UHGV virus genome: UHGV-0367149
From: a virus
Strand: one strand, 5' to 3'
Length of the DNA stretch: 37,417 nucleotides
In this document: one piece after another, positions 1,827 to 10,540 of the stretch
Numbering within the stretch: the stretch's first letter is position 1
How the letters are laid out: every line of letters begins with the position of its first letter
Made by a program: the position numbers and the translations under genes
The notes under the pieces: generated by a model
Told to the model about the DNA's origin: nothing
The model's database searches: none
The model's input: the letters and a program-made list of their open reading frames with translations, nothing else

Positions 1827-4298
1827 TTAAGAATCAGCCTGACTCGGGATCAGTTTTTGCCAGATAACTGAAACGTATTTTGCCTGGTAACGGGCGTCAT
1901 CAAGTGCATTATGGCGCTCACCTTCGAATGGAATAGCCGTTCTGGCATCGAAGTCTATGGCTTTCCCCAGCTCAACGATTGTGCGTACATCGCGATCGTT
2001 GTAGTAACGCCACGGGCAGGGGATCCCCTGCCGTTCGTATGAACGGCGCAAAATCGTGTTGTCGAAGTTGGCTCCATTTCCCCAGACCTGAACAAAAAAT
2101 TCACCGGAGTTTTCGTCGATAAATTCCCGCAATTGTAACAGTGCATCATCTAACGGGATTTCATCGGTCATAATGGCAGATTGCGCTTCGCGTGATTGCT
2201 TAAGCCACCATTTAATGGTGTCCCGATCAATGACTCCGCCAGCAGTTTCCAGATCGATAGTCTTACTAAATTCCGGTCCCATATCTCCGGTTTGCGGATC
2301 GAAAAATATTGCACCTATTGAGATGATCGGGGCATCAGGATTTTTTCCCATGGTTTCAAGGTCTATCATTAGATGGTCACACGTCCTGCTGGTGGATGTG
2401 ATTTCGTGATGACCGTTCACCTTAATTGAGTGATCTGCCGTCTCGCCAGTTTCATTATCGCTATCGTGATGCTGATTGCCGCCAGCATTCTCCTTGTGTG
2501 GATGTTCAGCGCCTTCCATTTTCTCCGGATCATCTTCCTGAACTTCAACCTGATACTCTTCATCGAATGTTTCTTGGTATGTTGCGTCGCCCATCACCGC
2601 GCCACAATCAGGGCAGTTGCCACCGCCGGTCTGACCGCAGGCGGTGCAGACTTTTTCCACTTCCTGATGCGCCACTGGCTCAGGCTGTTTCGTTTCTGGC
2701 TCGTTTTGTAACGCATTTGGGCTGTTTTGTTCCGCTTTTTGGTAGTTCCGTTCCGATTCATGCTGGTTCTGGTTCACAGAATCGCGGGTCTGGATCCCCT
2801 TAACCCATTTCGGATCATTCGGGTCACTAATCCCTTCAACAAATTCACCACGTGATGCAGCAAGCAACTTATCGGCGTCAGGCTGGCTGATATTGGCTGC
2901 CTGCATAATTTTGTTTACTTCGTCAGCGGTAACTTTTATCGGCTCTGGTTGTTCTGAATCTTCAGCGGTATCTACATTTTGCGGTAAGCCCGTGTATGTG
3001 CCATTTTTTCGGGCAAAATATTCTTCTTTTGTGATTTCAGTGGCGCCAGCAGCCAGTGCCTTATCCAGACCAGAAAGTTTGTTTGCGCGACCGTATTTTT
3101 CTCCGTCCTTATCTGCGAAGAGGAAATAGAACGGCCCCTCACGCTCTACAGATGGTTCAGCTTCCGGCGCGGTTTCATTTTTTGGGATATCAGATACCTC
3201 AGTTTCCACTGCATCAGTTTGTGTTTCTGATGACTGGAGAACATCAACAGTGCCCAGGTCTGTTTCTTCATTCTCAAACACGCCCTTTGTCGTCAGGTAT
3301 TCGCAGATATATTTGTTCAGTGCTATGGGATCTTTGTGAATGTCGATCGGACGCTCACGGACAAGGCCAAAAATAGTTTGGCGGTCGTAGCGAAGGGCAT
3401 CAGGCTGTTTGCGCATTGATGCCGAGATACGCTTCCAGTCTTCGCGGTCGTTGTCGATAACTTCATTTTTTGCCCAGCGATGGATGCTGCCATCAATGTT
3501 TCCGGCATCCACATCACCAGGCCAGAGAGCGTAGGCCAGTTCGTCATCCAGTGTTTTCCATGTCTGCTTGTATTCGCGATGGATGGCAGCAATGACCGGG
3601 CTGATTTTTCCTGTTGAATTTTCAGTGTACTGTTGATTGGCTCTGGCGCGGGCGAGATCAACAACAGACGTGTATTTTCCGGTTTCCTTGCGTTCACCTT
3701 CGCGACGTTTTTTCCAGATGCGCATCTCTGCCTGAATTTCGGGCCATTTAGCACCAGGAATACATTTATGCTTAACCCACCCAATGGCGTGCAACTTAAG
3801 CTCCGGATACATGGCGTTAACTTCTGGCATTTTCATCAACGCTTCAACGATATGTCCGTCGAATGTTGCCATGTCTTCCTGCAACAATTCCTGTGCGCTA
3901 ATAACCATATCAACGGTGATGTTTTCACATGTGTCGAACTTAACCATGACAGCGTTCTGTACTTCAGGGGCCAGCTTGTCAAAAGTGACGTTCATCGGAT
4001 CGGATTCAGTCTCAACCGGGACAAAAGAAGCAGACTCCTCATCCCAGCGGTTTTCCTGCATATATTCAGCATCCCATGAATCGAGGGCAGGGCGGGGTAT
4101 GCCAGGTTTATCCTCGCAGACAATAAATTTATAAGCGCAGTCCTGAGCAGCCGGATAATGTTCCAGGAATTGCCAGTGAAATTTTGCGCGGGCGCGACGT
4201 TCATCACCGGCTTCAATGGCAGTGGCTACAGCGACGGCACCTTCTTCCTTTATTGCCTGTTCGCCCGGAATGGCGGCGCAAATAAAGACTTTACTCAT
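1827..4298 (-). CDS. exodeoxyribonuclease VIII-like protein (RecE/YdfE family) with C-terminal DnaQ-like 3'-5' exonuclease domain
   Basis: 823-aa ORF. Central segment ...PDADKLLAASRGEFVEGISDPNDPKWVKGIQTRD... recalled as RecE-like. C-terminus has DEDDh-type motifs (MIDLETMG..., ...WGNGANFD..., ...HNALDDARY). A CxxC...CxxC zinc ribbon (CTACGQTGGGNCPDCG) lies between them. Confidence 0.75.
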   Translation of the reverse strand: MSKVFICAAIPGEQAIKEEGAVAVATAIEAGDERRARAKFHWQFLEHYPAAQDCAYKFIVCEDKPGIPRPALDSWDAEYMQENRWDEESASFVPVETESDPMNVTFDKLAPEVQNAVMVKFDTCENITVDMVISAQELLQEDMATFDGHIVEALMKMPEVNAMYPELKLHAIGWVKHKCIPGAKWPEIQAEMRIWKKRREGERKETGKYTSVVDLARARANQQYTENSTGKISPVIAAIHREYKQTWKTLDDELAYALWPGDVDAGNIDGSIHRWAKNEVIDNDREDWKRISASMRKQPDALRYDRQTIFGLVRERPIDIHKDPIALNKYICEYLTTKGVFENEETDLGTVDVLQSSETQTDAVETEVSDIPKNETAPEAEPSVEREGPFYFLFADKDGEKYGRANKLSGLDKALAAGATEITKEEYFARKNGTYTGLPQNVDTAEDSEQPEPIKVTADEVNKIMQAANISQPDADKLLAASRGEFVEGISDPNDPKWVKGIQTRDSVNQNQHESERNYQKAEQNSPNALQNEPETKQPEPVAHQEVEKVCTACGQTGGGNCPDCGAVMGDATYQETFDEEYQVEVQEDDPEKMEGAEHPHKENAGGNQHHDSDNETGETADHSIKVNGHHEITSTSRTCDHLMIDLETMGKNPDAPIISIGAIFFDPQTGDMGPEFSKTIDLETAGGVIDRDTIKWWLKQSREAQSAIMTDEIPLDDALLQLREFIDENSGEFFVQVWGNGANFDNTILRRSYERQGIPCPWRYYNDRDVRTIVELGKAIDFDARTAIPFEGERHNALDDARYQAKYVSVIWQKLIPSQADS

Positions 4299-4391
4299 TT
4301 TGTTTTAACCTCATGACAGATTTAAGGATGAACAAATCCCTGCCATTGCTGGCATATAAGAATGAAACCGGATATTTATTACGGAACTGTT

Positions 4392-4583
4392 TTAAAGACC
4401 TGCCGGGATTTCGATATTATCCTGGTGAATAACTTTATCGACCGGGTAACAGTTACCGGGAATTTTCTGTTCGGTTGCTGCAGTCATACACTCCTGCATT
4501 GTCCTGTGAACACTGACTGCAATATCAACTGGCACTCCGGAAACAAGAAAAACTGTCAGAACAAGCGCAAATGCTGAATTCAT
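4392..4583 (-). CDS. ydfD: Qin-prophage small protein YdfD
   Basis: 63-aa product from the internal ATG at 4583 (MNSAFALVLTVFLVSGVPVDIAVSVHRTMQECMTAATEQKIPGNCYPVDKVIHQDNIEIPAGL), recalled as K-12 YdfD. Start overlaps the dicB stop (ATGA). Confidence 0.7.
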   Translation of the reverse strand: MNSAFALVLTVFLVSGVPVDIAVSVHRTMQECMTAATEQKIPGNCYPVDKVIHQDNIEIPAGL

Positions 4584-4768
4584 TGTGCACATCCTTTTGG
4601 CATCAGACGTAAACGAGCCAGCATTGAAACAATGCATATTTTATTTAATAGCTCCCGTTCTTGTTTTCTCTTGTTAATGGCATCTTCAGTAAATACAGGG
4701 TTACTGATAGTGACACCAATTTCAAAACAACCTTCAGACGTATTAACGTTTGGTAATAACGTTTTCAT
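4580..4768 (-). CDS. dicB: cell-division inhibitor DicB
   Basis: 62-aa product from the ATG at 4768 (MKTLLPNVNTSEGCFEIGVTISNPVFTEDAINKRKQERELLNKICIVSMLARLRLMPKGCAQ), matching DicB as recalled. GAGGA Shine-Dalgarno 7 nt upstream. The ORF track gives a longer GTG-initiated frame. Confidence 0.85.
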   Translation of the reverse strand: MKTLLPNVNTSEGCFEIGVTISNPVFTEDAINKRKQERELLNKICIVSMLARLRLMPKGCAQ

Positions 4769-4937
4769 TATCGCGTCCTCAACAATGAATTTTGTGATGC
4801 AGTGCCTGGTGCCTCCAGGTGACGTTAACCAGTTAACAATTAACGTCGGATACAGAGAATCCACCCATAACACTGTTTTTGGTTTTAACTGTTCCGCGTG
4901 CGCTTAGCCGTATTCACCGCATCACAAAATTCACTTT

Positions 4938-4995
4938 AAAAAGGGCGGCAGAGCAGTCACGGAGTAAAACTGATACCGCCAAACGTCACCAGAAA
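4938..4995 (-). ncRNA. dicF: DicF small regulatory RNA (ftsZ-targeting), including its intrinsic terminator
   Basis: Minus-strand sequence UUUCUGGUGACGUUUGGCGGUAUCAGUUUUACUCCGUGACUGCUCUGCCGCCCUUUUU matches DicF as recalled. GC stem plus U-tract at the 3' end. Lies between the ydfB-like gene and dicB, as in Qin. Confidence 0.8.
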
Positions 4996-5254
4996 ATTGA
5001 TAACAGAGGGCGTTGCAGCGGGGTTGTCACTTAAGCGTATGGTCAACCTGACAACCCGGTGTCCTCAACGGGGAAGGAATAACCCCGCCATACTTACCGC
5101 CGCGCCATTTTGCGGGTTGCCACAACCGGAAGCGCACGGTCGAATTAAATTTAACGACACCGTACAGTGAGACGAACTTCGCCGTGCGCTTTCGTGTTGT
5201 GTGCCTGCTTTTAACCACGTCAGGCGAGGTGGTATCCTTAAAATCACCACAGTT

Positions 5255-5830
5255 TTAAGGATTCATTAAGCAATGTCGCAACCACCAATAAATCCGCTTA
5301 AGAACATGAAAATTGATTACTGGTATAAAGCTCTTACAGTTGTTGGCGCAGCGTTGTTTGTCTTTAATGGAACGTCTTTTTTTGACAGATATCCCGTTGT
5401 TCCATTGGGTTTTTTGTCCTCCGGCATCTTTTTTATTGGTTTGGGGGAGTGGATTAATCACCCTCTCATAGTGAGATTTATTGGTCCTGGAGTTTGGACT
5501 CGTGGATATAATCGTTCTTCGTGCGCACTCGGTATCATCTTCGACATACTTGGTTGTTTCCTGATTGTTACAGGAGTCGTCAAGTTCTTCTGATGTAAAA
5601 CCGCAAATGGGGCACGTAACGGGAATTTTGAAAAGCGTTTCTCCGGGTTCCAGAACAAAATTTTCTGCGGTCTGATTTTGCTTCTCATATTTGTGCTCCG
5701 CGTCATTGTGAGAGCACATTCTTATTCTGAGTGCCTGTTTAAACTCACTGAAGCTGAGAGCTTCTTCGCCTTCGGCAAGGCCTTCGAAGTATTCTTCGTA
5801 AGCCTTTTCCATGATTGTGTCGAAATCCAT
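5255..5830 (-). CDS. hypothetical protein at the ydfB/ydfC position of the dicB operon (extended ORF with a CPICG motif)
   Basis: ATG at 5830 lies 1 nt after the ydfA stop with an AGGTGAG Shine-Dalgarno. N-terminus MDFDTIMEKAYEEYFEGLAEGEEALSFSEFKQAL... is acidic and protein-like. The 3' two-thirds is low-complexity and overlaps an antisense ORF, so the true 3' end is uncertain. Confidence 0.4.
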   Translation of the reverse strand: MDFDTIMEKAYEEYFEGLAEGEEALSFSEFKQALRIRMCSHNDAEHKYEKQNQTAENFVLEPGETLFKIPVTCPICGFTSEELDDSCNNQETTKYVEDDTECARRTIISTSPNSRTNKSHYERVINPLPQTNKKDAGGQKTQWNNGISVKKRRSIKDKQRCANNCKSFIPVINFHVLKRIYWWLRHCLMNP

Positions 5831-5831
5831 A

Positions 5832-5987
5832 TCACTCACCTGAGTTTCTTTCCAGCCAGCGACGGGCACCATTTTCGGTTTTAAACGTTTTGCTTTTGGT
5901 ATACGTCATCGCGGTGAACGTGCCGTCCTGGTTGGGGAACACGCCACATACCAGAGATTCGCTGTTGCCAAGATCGATAGTATCCAT
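5832..5987 (-). CDS. ydfA: Qin-prophage small protein YdfA
   Basis: 51-aa product from the ATG at 5987 (MDTIDLGNSESLVCGVFPNQDGTFTAMTYTKSKTFKTENGARRWLERNSGE), recalled as near-identical to K-12 YdfA. Immediately downstream of the DicA-like gene. Confidence 0.72.
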   Translation of the reverse strand: MDTIDLGNSESLVCGVFPNQDGTFTAMTYTKSKTFKTENGARRWLERNSGE

Positions 5988-6179
5988 GCTGACCTCATTT
6001 CCCCTTAACGCCGGGGTAGCGGAACTGTTTGCTGAGAACACCGTGCGGTGTCTTGATGGAGGTAATTTAGTTTTCTCATTATTTTTCGTCAAGGTTTTTT
6101 GATGAGAAAACTCAAGTGTTGGCGCAAGATAAAGCCAATACATTGAAATGTAAGGCTTTAAAATTTTGTGAAGGGATGA

Positions 6180-6587
6180 TTATTGATGCTTGTTGCGTTT
6201 GCGAGCCTCTAATAGCTCGGTGAACAGGCGATTAAAATTCTCAACGCGGGCGCGGAGTTCGCTGAGTTGTGCTTGTTGCTCTGATTTAGGAAGTGCGCGA
6301 TACAAACGCAGCATCTCTAACTCATCTTCCGATAAGTCTAAGGCACTATCGAGTGAAACAGGGGGAGCTGGTGTTTTGTCCTCGTCGCCAAACAGTATCC
6401 AAGTTGGTGAACATTGCAATACCTCGGCGAGGCGATGCAAATTTTGCCCGCGCGGGGCTGTATGGTCACTTTCCCATAATGAAATTGATGAGCCAGATAC
6501 GCCAGCAGCTTTGCTTAAACCGTTTTGACTTAAGCCTACCTGCTTACGTCTTTCTCTAATGCGTTGACCTAAAGTTTTCTCGTTCAT
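6180..6587 (-). CDS. DicA-like HTH (XRE-family) prophage repressor
   Basis: Product from the ATG at 6587 (MNEKTLGQRIRERRKQVGLSQNGLSKAAG...LQCSPTWILFGDEDK...) is colinear with K-12 DicA as recalled, roughly half identical. Divergent from the Cro-like gene. Confidence 0.85.
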   Translation of the reverse strand: MNEKTLGQRIRERRKQVGLSQNGLSKAAGVSGSSISLWESDHTAPRGQNLHRLAEVLQCSPTWILFGDEDKTPAPPVSLDSALDLSEDELEMLRLYRALPKSEQQAQLSELRARVENFNRLFTELLEARKRNKHQ

Positions 6588-6664
6588 ATTTAGATATCTT
6601 AATAACCCTTGACTTGAGATTCCTTGAGTGATTAGCATTGAGAAAACTCAATATTGGAGGTGCG
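6588..6664. promoter_or_regulatory. divergent promoter/operator region between the DicA-like repressor and DicC-like Cro genes
   Basis: 77-bp AT-rich intergenic region between divergently oriented repressor and Cro-like genes. Contains TTGACTTGAGATTCCTTGAGTGATTAGCATTGAGAAAACTCAATATTG with repeated TTGAG/CTCAA half-site-like elements. Operator positions not resolved. Confidence 0.45.
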
Positions 6665-6892
6665 ATGTTTAAATCAGACGTAATTAATTTTTACGGTACG
6701 AAAGCCAAAGTAGCGAAAGCTGCTGGCGTTGACCCATCTGCTGTTTCTCAATGGCAAGAGCTGGTTCCTGAAGGTCGCGCGATGCGTCTACAGGAGGCAT
6801 CTGGCGGCGAGCTTCTGTATGATCCCAAGGTTTATGACGAATATCGTAAGACGAAGCGGGCGGGGCGGTTGAACAATGAAAATCACTCCTGA
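6665..6892 (+). CDS. DicC-like Cro-type small regulator
   Basis: ATG at 6665 with GGAGG Shine-Dalgarno (6656-6660). 75-aa product MFKSDVINFYGTKAKVAKAAGVDPSAVSQWQ...; its C-terminal half resembles DicC as I recall it, but I am unsure of that recollection. Confidence 0.7.
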   Translation: MFKSDVINFYGTKAKVAKAAGVDPSAVSQWQELVPEGRAMRLQEASGGELLYDPKVYDEYRKTKRAGRLNNENHS

Positions 6893-7397
6893 ACAGGCTC
6901 GTGAGGCTCTGGATGCCTGGATATGTCGACCAGGAATGACACAGGAGCAGGCGACGATATTAATCACTGAAGCATTCTGGGCTTTGAAAGAGCGCCCGAA
7001 CATCGATGTTCAGCGTGTCACAGATGAAGGTGGCGCGGTTGATCAGCGAGCACTTGGCGTTAATCGAGTGAAGATATTCGAACGCTGGAAGGCTATCGAC
7101 ACCAGGGATAAGCGTGAAAAGTTCACGGCGCTAGTGCCTGCAATTATGGAGGCTATTCGGATTAATGATTTCAGGTTGTATCGTGAAATTAGTGACGGAA
7201 AAAGCATCACGTACATGATCGCCGGGTTAAACAAAGAATATGGCGATGTGGTGGAGTCCGGACTGCTTTTTGCTGATCCTGCCGTAGTGGATCGTGAAAC
7301 TGACGAACTTATAGAAAAAGCAATTGCTTTCAAACTTGCGTATCGACAGCAATACCAACAAAAAGCTGGATGGAATTATGAGCCTTCTTTTTGCTGA
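6876..7397 (+). CDS. YdaT-family protein (CII-like / putative toxin family)
   Basis: 173-aa ORF whose start overlaps the Cro-like stop. The segment ...VKIFERWKAIDTRDKREKFTALVPAIMEAI... parallels Rac YdaT (...NIYHRWLKGETKTAREKIQKLIPAILAIL...) as recalled. Confidence 0.55.
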   Translation: MKITPEQAREALDAWICRPGMTQEQATILITEAFWALKERPNIDVQRVTDEGGAVDQRALGVNRVKIFERWKAIDTRDKREKFTALVPAIMEAIRINDFRLYREISDGKSITYMIAGLNKEYGDVVESGLLFADPAVVDRETDELIEKAIAFKLAYRQQYQQKAGWNYEPSFC

Positions 7398-8343
7398 ACG
7401 CCCACTGGTTATAAACACACAGCTTGCGATGAAGATTGGCTTAAATGAAGCCATTGTGTTGCAGCAGTTGCATTACTGGTTGAGAGATACCAATTCCGGC
7501 ATGGAATGTGATGGTGTTCGCTGGATTTACAACACAACGGAACAATGGCTGGAACAGTTCCCATTCTGGTCAGAGTCAACGTTAAAGCGCGCGTTTGCAA
7601 GTCTGAAAACGCTGGGGCTTTTGCGTTGTGAAAAGCTCAATAAATCAAAGCGCGATATGACCAATTTCTACACGATCAACTACGGGAGCGAGCTTTTAGA
7701 TGGTGGCAAATTGAGCGAATCCATCGGTTTAAAATGCGCCGCTCCATCAGGTCAAAATGACACGATGGAAGAGGTCAAAATGAAACGCTCCATTGGTTCA
7801 AAACGACCCAATGTCATCGGGTCAAAATGGCCTGATGATCTTACAGAGAATACAACAGAGATTACTACAGAGAATAAAAACACTTTTCGTCCGGAAGCTT
7901 CGCAACCGGACCCGCAGACCGCTGAACAGGATTTTTTAACCCGGAACCCCGACGCGGTTGTGTTTAGTGCGAAAAAACGCCAGTGGGGTAGCAGGGAGGA
8001 TTTGGCGTGTGCGCAGTGGATTTGGGGGCGGATCGTGAACCTTTACGAACAGGCTGCCAGCGACGATGGAGAGATCATGCGACCAAAAGAGCCTAACTGG
8101 ACAGCCTGGGCCAATGACGTGCGCACAATGCGGATGCTGGATGGCAGAAGCCACAGACAAATTTGCGAAATGTTTGGTCGGGTACAGCGAGATCAATTCT
8201 GGGTAAAAAACATCATGAGCCCGTCAAAACTCCGCGAAAAATGGGACGAACTGGTCATCCGCCTGGGACGTTCACCTGTAAAGCGTTGTGTGAATCATAT
8301 TTCTGAACCGGATACAGAAATTCCGCCTGGTTTCAGGGGATAA
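7378..8343 (+). CDS. phage replication initiation (O-like / replisome-organizer) protein
   Basis: ATG at 7378 (the ORF track begins at an upstream TTG at 7324). N-terminal HTH-like region MSLLFAERPLVINTQLAMKIGLNEAIVLQQLHYWL... Sits after the Cro/YdaT genes, as YdaU does in Rac. Confidence 0.5.
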   Translation: MSLLFAERPLVINTQLAMKIGLNEAIVLQQLHYWLRDTNSGMECDGVRWIYNTTEQWLEQFPFWSESTLKRAFASLKTLGLLRCEKLNKSKRDMTNFYTINYGSELLDGGKLSESIGLKCAAPSGQNDTMEEVKMKRSIGSKRPNVIGSKWPDDLTENTTEITTENKNTFRPEASQPDPQTAEQDFLTRNPDAVVFSAKKRQWGSREDLACAQWIWGRIVNLYEQAASDDGEIMRPKEPNWTAWANDVRTMRMLDGRSHRQICEMFGRVQRDQFWVKNIMSPSKLREKWDELVIRLGRSPVKRCVNHISEPDTEIPPGFRG

Positions 8344-8383
8344 GTGTTGATTTTAGGGTATAAAGTAATGTTCAGGAGGACTT

Positions 8384-8803
8384 GTGGCAAAAGTTTTTAC
8401 ACAAGAAGAGCGGGAAAAAATTAAAGGGCAGGTGGTGGAACTCGTACGCCAGAGTGGGCGCGAGACGTTACGACAACTGGAAGCTAAAACTGGGGCAACA
8501 AGATATCTGATGAGCGTTCTGGCCAGAGAGCTGGTTGCCAGTGGCGATGTATACAGCTCTGGTTACGGGTTATTCCCGTCTGAACAGGCGCGTAAGGACT
8601 GGCAAAACGCCCGCAAAAAACTCTCGAGGGCAAAGGTGAAGAAACCTGCTGTGGTTGATCCGGACCTTATCTGGTCATTACCTGACGGAGAAATACGTCG
8701 CTACGACAGTCGTCTAAACATAATCTGTCGCGAGTGCCGGAAGGCAAGGAGAAGCAGGCTATTGTTAACACCAAGCTGTAATGTCCCCTTTGAACCATTC
8801 TAA
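8384..8803 (+). CDS. hypothetical protein; 3' end abuts or enters the IS left end
   Basis: GTG start with AGGAGGA Shine-Dalgarno. 139-aa product with no recognised family. Stop lies only 33 nt before the transposase ATG, so the C-terminus may be IS-derived. Confidence 0.4.
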   Translation: MAKVFTQEEREKIKGQVVELVRQSGRETLRQLEAKTGATRYLMSVLARELVASGDVYSSGYGLFPSEQARKDWQNARKKLSRAKVKKPAVVDPDLIWSLPDGEIRRYDSRLNIICRECRKARRSRLLLTPSCNVPFEPF

Positions 8804-10540
8804 AATGTCCCCAGACAATTCTCTGGGGGATTTTTCATGATCAAAGAGACTGTTACGATGAGTCATAAGGAACTCCACCGACTTCAGATTATTCAGGAGT
8901 CAATTAATCGACATATTACTCAGGAACAAGCTGCGGCACGCATTGGCATTTCTATTCGGCAGGTTAAACGTCTGGTGCAACGGTATAGAAATGAAGGGCC
9001 TTCTGGTCTGGTTTCCCACCGACGTGGAAAGCGTCCTAATAATTCCTTTTCTACTGAATTCAGAGCAACAGTAATTTCACTCCTCAAAGGCCGTTACGCT
9101 GATTTTGGACCTACGTTTGCGTGCGAAAAATTGCGCGAGATACACGGTTTATCTTTATCCGTTGAAACTCTCAGAAAGTGGATGATAGAAGAGGGGTTAT
9201 GGCGTGAACGCCGTCGTAAAATTGCCCGTATATATCAACGCCGCATGCGACGACCATCTTACGGTGAACTGATCCAGATTGATGGCTCACCTCATGACTG
9301 GTTTGAAAATCGAGGCCCCAGATGTACACTGATCGTTTTCATTGATGATGCCACCAGTGCGTTGATGGCGTTGCGTTTTGTGCCTGCTGAAACAACCCGG
9401 GCTTACATGGAAACCCTCCGGGGTTACCTTAATGATCATGGCGTACCGCTCGCTCTCTACTCTGATAGACACAGTATATTCAGGGTAAATAACCCAGAGC
9501 GGGAAGGTGAGCTGACCCAGTTCACTCGTGCGATAAAGACACTGGGCATCGAGCCAATCCATGCCAACAGCCCGCAGGCAAAAGGGCGGGTAGAGCGCGC
9601 CAATCAGACACTACAGGACAGGCTGGTCAAAGAAATGCGGCTTCAGAATATCAGTGATATTGAAACAGCAAATGCATGGTTGCCGACCTTTATTGAAGCC
9701 TATAACAACCGGTTCGCTACGTCGCCTCATACTACTGATAATGCTCATCTTGATGTGCACCATTCTGAAGAGGAACTGGGTTATATCTTCAGCCTACAGG
9801 CGAAGCGCGTTCTGTCTAAAAATCTCACTTTCCAGTACAAAAGCAGTGCGTTTCAGGTACGCAGTGAGGGCCGGGGATATCGACTTAGGCATTCGGTTGT
9901 TACTGTATGTGAGAACTTTGACGGTGAAATTAACGTTCTGTATGACGGGAAAGCGCTGGGCTGGGAAAAGTATGTTGATGGCCCGGAGCCTATACCACTG
10001 GATGATGAAAAGAGTGTCCATGAACGAGTGGATAATGCCCGTATTGATTTACGCTCAAAATACTATGTTAAATCTAAAGCTGACCATCCCTGGCTTACGC
10101 GCCGAACGCAAAGTCATCAGCAAGTTAAGCCCCCGAAGTTACCTAAAAAGAAGCCTGATCCCGATAAAATAGATTGAAACCAAGATCGATTCGGTTGAGT
10201 GCATATCCATTCATAGGGTAGATTCTTAAGTCGCGTTTCTGGTGTTCATTTTCGGGTGGTTTGTTACTTGTTTTACCGGGGATATGCCAGAAACGCGCTG
10301 AGTCAGTCTGGGCGGTGCGCGTAATGAGGCGTTATGGTAAATAGCCTATGCTAATGTCCGCTAAGAGCAAGAAGCGGAAGTTGGCAGTTTTGTGGACTGT
10401 CCCCACAAAAGTGACTACAGAAATAGTTGCAATTCATAATTGATCATGGGTTGTCAGTTAAACTCGTGGCGATTTAAATAGACTAATTGGGAGGGCGTCC
10501 ATTACTTATATCTTGTAATGTTAACTATCAGAAATGATAC
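8780..10540 (+). mobile_element. insertion sequence (single-ORF DDE transposase, IS481/ISNCY-like); ends not resolved
   Basis: Transposase ORF 8837-10177 plus about 350 bp of non-phage-like flank. I could not identify terminal inverted repeats or a target-site duplication by eye, so the boundaries are approximate. Confidence 0.4.
8837..10177 (+). CDS. IS transposase (N-terminal HTH, rve/DDE integrase core)
   Basis: 446-aa ORF. N-terminal HTH (...AAARIGISIRQVKRLVQRY...). Candidate DDE triad in ...LIQIDGSPHDW..., ...ALYSDRHSIF..., ...AKGRVERANQTLQ... Confidence 0.85.
   Translation: MIKETVTMSHKELHRLQIIQESINRHITQEQAAARIGISIRQVKRLVQRYRNEGPSGLVSHRRGKRPNNSFSTEFRATVISLLKGRYADFGPTFACEKLREIHGLSLSVETLRKWMIEEGLWRERRRKIARIYQRRMRRPSYGELIQIDGSPHDWFENRGPRCTLIVFIDDATSALMALRFVPAETTRAYMETLRGYLNDHGVPLALYSDRHSIFRVNNPEREGELTQFTRAIKTLGIEPIHANSPQAKGRVERANQTLQDRLVKEMRLQNISDIETANAWLPTFIEAYNNRFATSPHTTDNAHLDVHHSEEELGYIFSLQAKRVLSKNLTFQYKSSAFQVRSEGRGYRLRHSVVTVCENFDGEINVLYDGKALGWEKYVDGPEPIPLDDEKSVHERVDNARIDLRSKYYVKSKADHPWLTRRTQSHQQVKPPKLPKKKPDPDKID

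Follow-up and report, generated by a model that had tools for sequence, protein, structure and literature searches.

Are the two small overlapping genes at positions 6665–7397 of the virus genome UHGV-0367149 a toxin-antitoxin pair, or are they regulators of the Cro and CII kind? The DNA analyzed is a stretch of 37,417 nucleotides (nt), called the window below, and all coordinates refer to it. A sequence-only reading of this DNA had described a Cro-type gene overlapping the start of a YdaT-family gene and had noted that the analogous pair of the Rac prophage, ydaS-ydaT, has been discussed both as a toxin-antitoxin-like pair and as cro/cII-like regulators, a statement that holds. We consider it probable that the window genes correspond to cro and cII in the immunity region of a lambdoid E. 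coli prophage of the Qin type, the YdaT-family protein acting as a CII analogue at a box over its own gene start and on a leftward promoter, and that they do not form a toxin-antitoxin pair. The genes and DNA elements concerned are as follows.

6665–6892, plus strand: Cro-type gene, a DicC homologue of 75 amino acids (aa); ATG open reading frame (ORF) with GGAGG 6 nt upstream.
6876–7397, plus strand: YdaT-family (CII-analogue) gene of 173 aa; ATG ORF.
6869–6886: candidate YdaT-box, TTGAAC-AATGAA-AATCAC, the 6-nt spacer of which holds the start codon of the 173-aa gene.
6848–6843, minus strand: predicted −10 hexamer TACGAT of a leftward, YdaT-dependent PRE-type promoter, placed by comparison of related loci.

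The present analysis establishes which genes these are, how they overlap, the synteny of the locus, the predicted fold, and that the box and −10 element are conserved across the family. The coordinates and family assignments of the sequence-only reading were borne out. The 75-aa protein matches the NCBIfam DicC family (NF007282) with 165 bits (cut-off 130) and the Pfam family P22_Cro (PF14549) with 59 bits (cut-off 30), and it aligns with P22 Cro itself (PDB 1rzs, E=2e-12 over residues 1–58). By these matches it is a DicC/P22-Cro-type small helix-turn-helix (HTH) regulator, encoded opposite a CI-type repressor gene. The 173-aa protein matches Pfam YdaT_toxin (PF06254) with 26.1 bits (cut-off 21) over residues 59–131, a domain carried by all homologues found, and PHROG 163, "CII-like transcriptional activator", at E=2e-40 over residues 1–155. 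The DNA of 6876–7397 is identical to that of RefSeq WP_000705349.1, named "toxin YdaT family protein". The two ORFs share 17 nt (6876–6892). This overlap was rejected as a special feature: related loci show the common 4-nt ATGA overlap, and the longer overlap arises here because the DicC C-terminus uses a different reading frame.

As a single-sequence phmmer search of the PDB gave only marginal YdaT matches (E ~0.05–0.07), profile and structure searches were needed. A profile of 44 sequences matches the YdaT structure 8bt1 at E=1e-5, at positions 2–106 only. The AlphaFold2 (AF2) model made with these 44 sequences has a mean predicted local distance difference test score (pLDDT) of 85.6 and places helices at residues 5–16, 23–35, 57–73, 77–97, 99–106, 111–130, and 135–164, with a 21-residue loop at 36–56. 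In this model residues 1–106 are a POU-like five-helix HTH DNA-binding domain with an unusually long α2-α3 loop. Foldseek searches of the PDB with the model put two solved YdaT structures on top, 8bt1_C (probability 1.0, target-normalized template modeling score 0.62, 30% identity) and 3c4r_C (also probability 1.0), and gave no credible match beyond these two; Foldseek against the BFVD viral models was uninformative. Residues R70 and W71 of recognition helix α3 are invariant across the 44 homologues and align with R57-W58 of Rac YdaT, which have been tested by mutation (PMC11879457), and with the RW pair of 3c4r and 8bt1. Membership in the YdaT family is supported by Pfam, PHROGs, and the AlphaFold model. 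The sequence-only reading had named both YdaT and lambda CII as relatives to look for. Homology to YdaT was detectable, but none was found to lambda CII, for which BLASTP returned no alignment with the 173-aa protein and hhalign a probability of 0.05; CII was also not among the matches in PDB sequence searches with the protein. "CII-like" is a statement about position and function only.

A type II toxin-antitoxin module, with the Cro-like HTH protein as antitoxin and autorepressor and the YdaT-family protein as toxin, is the explanation that the database names would suggest ("YdaS_toxin" in Pfam, "toxin YdaT family protein" in RefSeq). The presence of two small overlapping genes, the first coding for an HTH protein, also fits that explanation, as does a weak sub-threshold match of the Cro-like protein to YdaS_toxin (22.7 bits, cut-off 30), and two reports describe toxicity upon ectopic expression of Rac YdaS/YdaT (PMC5700377, PMC5700373). 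However, the toxin names in Pfam and RefSeq trace to an early prediction, and the predicted fold is a POU-like HTH domain plus an oligomerization module, with no toxin fold. In prophage CP-933P, YdaT is not toxic and activates PRE, which lies between ydaS and ydaT, making it a CII analogue (PMC8630535), and the toxicity of Rac YdaT is attributed to transcriptional activation of the host gene rcsA. The paper on the structure explicitly discards the toxin-antitoxin model (PMC9986795). Moreover, the YdaT-family gene always lies between the cro and replication genes of lambdoid immunity regions, and the conserved operator and −10 element at its start, described below, speak against a toxin. We regard a toxin-antitoxin module as very improbable.

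Published experiments also show that Rac YdaT raises racR expression through a YdaT-box (PMC11879457). The work on homologues as a whole speaks for Cro/CII-like regulators rather than for toxin and antitoxin (PMC8630535, PMC9986795, PMC11879457). Conserved gene order points the same way, as does the YdaT-box with its −10 element in the sequences compared. The order repressor (minus strand), cro or ydaS (plus strand), ydaT (plus strand), replication genes is also seen in Salmonella, Citrobacter, and further loci, and is kept even where cro belongs to another family.

The candidate box in the window lies in the same register as the YdaT-box footprinted in Rac, ATGATT-CATGAA-AATCAA, the spacer of which holds the ydaT ATG (PMC11879457); in both cases the ATG is inside the spacer. 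The CP-933P YdaT site, TTGATT-N6-AATCAA, is located where ydaS ends (PMC9986795). As a single match with three mismatches is at chance level, the case for the box rests on its register and on its conservation across loci. Of 95 related loci, 94 carry the pattern nTGAnn-N6-nnTCAn at the gene start, among them loci with an unrelated cro gene or a displaced ATG. A first scan of IMG/VR yielded near-identical E. coli copies only and the genome scan nine loci; the diverse loci were obtained by scanning again with a divergent alignment. One subgroup has its ATG displaced by 6 nt and lacks one N-terminal residue, but keeps the box (GTGAAC-AACCAT-GATCAC), which argues for constraint at the level of the DNA rather than the protein. 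A generic inverted-repeat scan of 6100–7500 did not report the candidate box, because it is too degenerate.

The second conserved element lies on the opposite strand. Across 16 clusters with unrelated flanks, Rac included, 15 have TAnnnT on the minus strand at exactly 20–21 nt past the box; the single exception has CACGAT at the −10 position. TAnnnT has a background frequency of 0.012 per offset, which makes the binomial P ~8e-24 versus the local background. The box is centered at about −41.5 or −42.5 of the predicted leftward promoter, which is class II activator geometry. Together the box and −10 spacing predicts a CII/PRE-type promoter directed towards the repressor gene. In Rac (L003, ~4652–4657, minus strand) the hexamer is TATGAT, 20 nt away from the YdaT-box that was footprinted.

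The proposed scheme would run as follows. A PR-like promoter would drive an operon encoding DicC (a P22-Cro-type repressor), the 173-aa YdaT-family protein, and an O-like replication initiator. The 173-aa protein, as an oligomer, would bind the inverted repeat TTGAAC-N6-AATCAC (6869–6886) over its own start codon, the box being centered ~41.5 base pairs (bp) upstream of the point where a leftward promoter, its −10 element being TACGAT (6848–6843), would start transcription. Leftward transcription would cross dicC in antisense and continue into the dicA-like repressor gene, and activation would favor the repressed (lysogenic or silent) state. That the 173-aa protein binds DNA, activates transcription, and acts as an oligomer we infer from its homologues. 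CP-933P YdaT requires oligomerization for binding TTGATT-N6-AATCAA, and the solved protein forms an antiparallel four-helix-bundle tetramer through one long helix, α6 (PMC9986795), whereas CP-933P YdaT(1–96) is monomeric and does not bind DNA.

The same box would also serve a YdaT-family DNA-binding regulator with some other main role, be it autorepression at its own ribosome-binding site and start codon, control of the O-like gene, or control of host genes. The box does cover the point where translation of its gene begins, Rac YdaT has PydaST and host rcsA among its other binding sites, and the wide retention of a cryptic prophage could reflect a function at the level of the host. However, a −10-like hexamer at fixed spacing on the opposite strand (15 of 16 loci) is predicted by an activator-dependent leftward promoter and not by mere autorepression. 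These roles are compatible with CII-like activation, the alternatives not being mutually exclusive, but as the main role we think any of them unlikely.

Several observations weigh against the CII-analogue reading. The candidate box agrees with the Rac/CP-933P consensus at 9 of 12 positions and has internal symmetry at only three of six, and a search of the whole window for TTGATT-N6-AATCAA with up to three mismatches found 18 sites versus 22 expected, so that such sites are not enriched. The right half-site and spacer coincide with codons 1–4, and a conserved N-terminus could explain part of the conservation. Of the H56-R57 pair in Rac YdaT, the histidine position is E69 in the 173-aa protein. 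The two-helix C-terminus described below differs from the tetramerizing helix in sequence and in the model, and oligomeric state and site recognition may differ with it. Experiments have all been done on homologues (CP-933P and Rac) outside the 160–173-aa subfamily. Finally, Wons et al. 2025 reported YdaT-dependent racR activation at PracR4, which is ~190 bp from the box and not adjacent to it (PMC11879457); given the conserved spacing, an adjacent PRE-type promoter may have been overlooked in Rac.

What, then, is the additional length of the 173-aa protein? The sequence-only reading had called it longer than K-12 Rac YdaT, with a C-terminal extension. It gave the correct length for the latter (140 aa), and the window protein is indeed 33 aa longer, but 13 of these residues lie N-terminal and the C-terminus is an alternative module. 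Counting from shared landmarks (R70/W71 and P88 here, R57/W58 and P75 in Rac), 13 of the 33 residues lie before the recognition helix and 20 after the DNA-binding domain. Residues 107–173 are predicted by AF2 to form a helix-loop-helix module (helices 111–130 and 135–164), with a block-mean pLDDT of ~78–92 over residues 111–150. As this part cannot be aligned with helix α6 of the solved YdaT, the profile alignment to 8bt1 ending at residue 106, it is, judged by alignment and model, a different module and not an appendage.

A search of a library of 1.8 billion representative proteins gave a compact, enterobacterial family of homologues (~80 clusters at 50% identity). About 40 are full-length proteins of 159–173 aa from E. 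coli, Citrobacter, Salmonella, Raoultella, and Enterobacter that are 35–45% identical to the window protein over their whole length, the C-terminal part included; there S110 never varies, and conservation reaches at least 90% at K120, R140, and R157. As full-length members keep the C-terminal region, 173 aa is a normal length, and on the sequences collected 160–173 aa is the norm for the whole enterobacterial subfamily rather than an oddity of the window copy. These data also bear on the notion that the ORF is an artefact, a YdaT of the 140-aa type lengthened by frameshift, readthrough, or small-ORF fusion, its extension being meaningless. There are many truncated or fused database variants, several of them broken after residue 93 (K-12 YdfX, P0035, and P0047). 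Against this, C-terminal conservation in ~40 full-length homologues refutes an artefact, AF2 predicts both C-terminal helices, relatives of 143–162 aa have a similar-looking C-terminal motif, and the identical protein is present in hundreds of E. coli genomes. We give an artefact almost no credence.

Sequences read by eye suggest that the more distant relatives of 143–162 aa share a similar two-helix C-terminal motif. The C-terminal module appears to be interchangeable within the YdaT family, as judged from sequence comparison; one of these relatives, P0181, is a chimera with a DNA-binding domain of the Rac type and a C-terminus of the window type. In P0035 and P0047, as in K-12 YdfX, the break comes immediately after residue 93 ("PAIMEA"), where the DNA-binding domain ends; the fusion partner is a DUF968 protein in P0035 and a DnaC-like protein in P0047. 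P0063, fused to an O-like protein, breaks earlier, after ~residue 62. The repeated breaks at residue 93 could mark a deletion/recombination hotspot or a module boundary. More speculatively, the 160–173-aa subfamily may be a structurally distinct branch of YdaT in which a helix-loop-helix replaces the single tetramerizing helix and alters the oligomeric state (e.g., to a hairpin-based dimer), with class-II-type activation from one box at −41.5 and shuffling of DNA-binding and oligomerization modules at the conserved "PAI" junction. We hold this proposal only tentatively and think it somewhat doubtful. If it is true, the same box/−10 geometry implies that the Rac YdaT-dependent promoter lies beside the box and not 190 bp away.

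The setting of the pair in E. coli chromosomes is well represented in the databases. Many E. coli chromosomes, that of O26:H11 strain 11368 among them, carry the 1.4-kilobase (kb) segment with 100% identity, and 775 of 5426 complete genomes hold at least 80% of it; the RefSeq labels are "Cro/CI family transcriptional regulator" and "toxin YdaT family protein". In O26:H11 11368 the neighbors are dicB, ydfD, ydfA, relBE, hokD, and flxA, which identify the prophage as Qin-type. Copies of the segment 99–100% identical also occur in metagenome-assembled genomes labelled Bacillota, Veillonella parvula, and Collinsella (L009, L010, L011; P0057), and there is an 81%-identical fragment labelled Rhodococcus qingshengii. 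The taxon labels other than E. coli are probably binning or contamination artefacts.

The sequence-only reading took Rac as the analogue, which is reasonable by position, but it missed that the closest K-12 counterpart is dicC-ydfX of Qin (b1569-b1568), with a divergent dicA and the identical 17-nt overlap of dicC and the next gene. K-12 YdfX (96 aa) corresponds to residues 1–93 of the 173-aa protein except for two substitutions, after which come three unrelated residues (TTG) and a stop. BLASTN showed that K-12 Qin lacks 2837 bp of the window (7156–9992), carrying the final 80 codons of the YdaT-family gene together with the O-like gene, a DUF977 gene, and most of an IS1202-like transposase gene, the C-terminal tail of which is K-12 YdfW. 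K-12 ydfX and ydfW are thus stumps left by a 2.8-kb deletion, whereas the window gene is intact. YdfX has already been termed the "Qin prophage YdaT homolog" (PMC11879457). As CP-933P YdaT(1–96) is monomeric and nonbinding, K-12 YdfX, which consists of the DNA-binding domain only, is probably inactive.

The genes and DNA elements around the pair are given next.

6180–6587, minus strand: DicA-like (CI-type) HTH repressor gene of 135 aa, divergent from the cro-like gene.
6609–6638, plus strand: candidate PR-type sigma-70 promoter for the dicC-ydaT-O operon, TTGACT-18-TAGCAT, by consensus match.
6638–6651: candidate DicA/DicC operator, the palindromic TTGAGAAAACTCAA, with copies at 6102–6115 and, inverted, at 6066–6079.
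7378–8343, plus strand: O-like replication initiator gene (PHROG 391, "replication initiation O-like", E=1e-92).
4943–4994, minus strand: DicF small RNA gene (Rfam, 76.7 bits; gathering threshold 48).

The DicA-like protein matches NCBIfam DicA (NF007257) with 239 bits (cut-off 101) over residues 18–152 of a longer ORF and also matches Pfam HTH_3; the gene start used for 6180–6587 is that annotated in RefSeq. K-12 DicA is 57% identical to it. K-12 DicC is 70% identical to the window DicC, the C-terminal 45 residues being identical whereas the N-terminal HTH part diverges. At the DNA level window 6059–6763, which comprises the dicA-like gene and the intergenic region and reaches into the 5′ part of dicC, could not be aligned with K-12 by megablast, whereas the flanks are 97–99% identical. 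On this alignment pattern 6059–6763 is a different immunity allele, a module swap of the kind that makes lambdoid mosaics, with its right boundary in the middle of dicC.

TTGACT-18-TAGCAT is the sole promoter-like consensus match within 6100–7500, and from it we infer the position of the PR-type promoter (6609–6638). An exact 13-mer occurs at both 6103–6115 and 6639–6651, with the inverted copy at 6066–6079. Written as TGAGAAAACT(C/A)AA, the repeat has copies at 6066–6079 (minus strand), 6102–6115 (plus strand), and 6638–6651 (plus strand), and a weaker copy at 6573–6584. One copy overlaps the −10 element and start of the PR-like promoter, and two mutually inverted copies sit downstream of the dicA-like gene. 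By analogy these repeats are likely to be the OR- and OL-type operators for the DicA-like and DicC-like regulators that this immunity allele encodes.

The O-like gene, the start of which agrees with RefSeq, overlaps the 3′ end of the YdaT-family gene by 20 nt and is followed by the DUF977 gene and then by the IS1202-like transposase gene. Just after the DUF977 gene, at 8837–10177, is an intact 446-aa ORF for the IS1202-like (ISEsa1 family) transposase; in E. coli O26:H11 11368 the IS1202-like element is annotated as a partial pseudogene. An Rfam scan of 4000–10500 found no RNA family inside dicC-ydaT, the sole above-threshold match being DicF, upstream. Beside DicF is an STnc100-like sub-threshold match (4736–4945, minus strand, 34.6 bits, threshold 47). 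A 205-aa ORF at 5255–5872 (minus strand), the sole match of which is PHROG 35040 (unknown function, E=3e-148), falls within a stretch of ~5213–5729 that has no counterpart in K-12 Qin.

The window pair is nothing out of the ordinary: it belongs to the immunity module of a Qin-like prophage, is annotated already, and has little importance beyond annotation hygiene. As the protein is best read as a CII-type regulator of Qin-like prophages, the label "toxin YdaT family protein" carried by hundreds of E. coli genomes is misleading. What we add is the recognition of K-12 ydfX and ydfW as deletion remnants, of the "extension" as the two-helix module of a subfamily, and of a family-wide box/−10 geometry. 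A concrete operator/promoter prediction (box 6869–6886, −10 element 6848–6843) is now available for an uncharacterised subfamily, and the combination of box, 20–21 nt, and TAnnnT could help find PRE-type promoters in other lambdoid prophages.

Among the known systems CP-933P YdaT (8bt1) and its close relative 3c4r are nearest in structure, being the best and only significant structural matches. They share with the window protein the long α2-α3 loop, the arginine of the recognition helix, and a place after a cro-type gene, and CP-933P also has a 6-N6-6 inverted-repeat operator at the cro/ydaT junction. The similarity is, however, of ~30% identity and confined to the DNA-binding domain, and where the solved proteins have a single helix α6 the window protein has two predicted helices. 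The half-sites also differ, TTGATT in CP-933P versus TTGAAC/GTGATT in the window.

Rac YdaS-YdaT (K-12 b1357-b1358) occupies the same place in its immunity region. Rac YdaT is 41% identical to the window protein over 29 residues, confined to α3-α4, and differs in its 140-aa length and single-helix C-terminus. Rac ydaS and ydaT are 22 nt apart and do not overlap, and YdaS belongs to an HTH family other than P22-type Cro (33% identity over 46 residues). Lambda CII recognizes a direct repeat, TTGC-N6-TTGC, flanking the −35 element, whereas the YdaT box is an inverted repeat near −41.5. Nevertheless, lambda has the same cI (minus strand)/cro/cII/O gene order, its activator site and leftward promoter likewise overlap the 5′ end of the activator's own gene, and the function of CII is analogous, as has been found for CP-933P and Rac YdaT.

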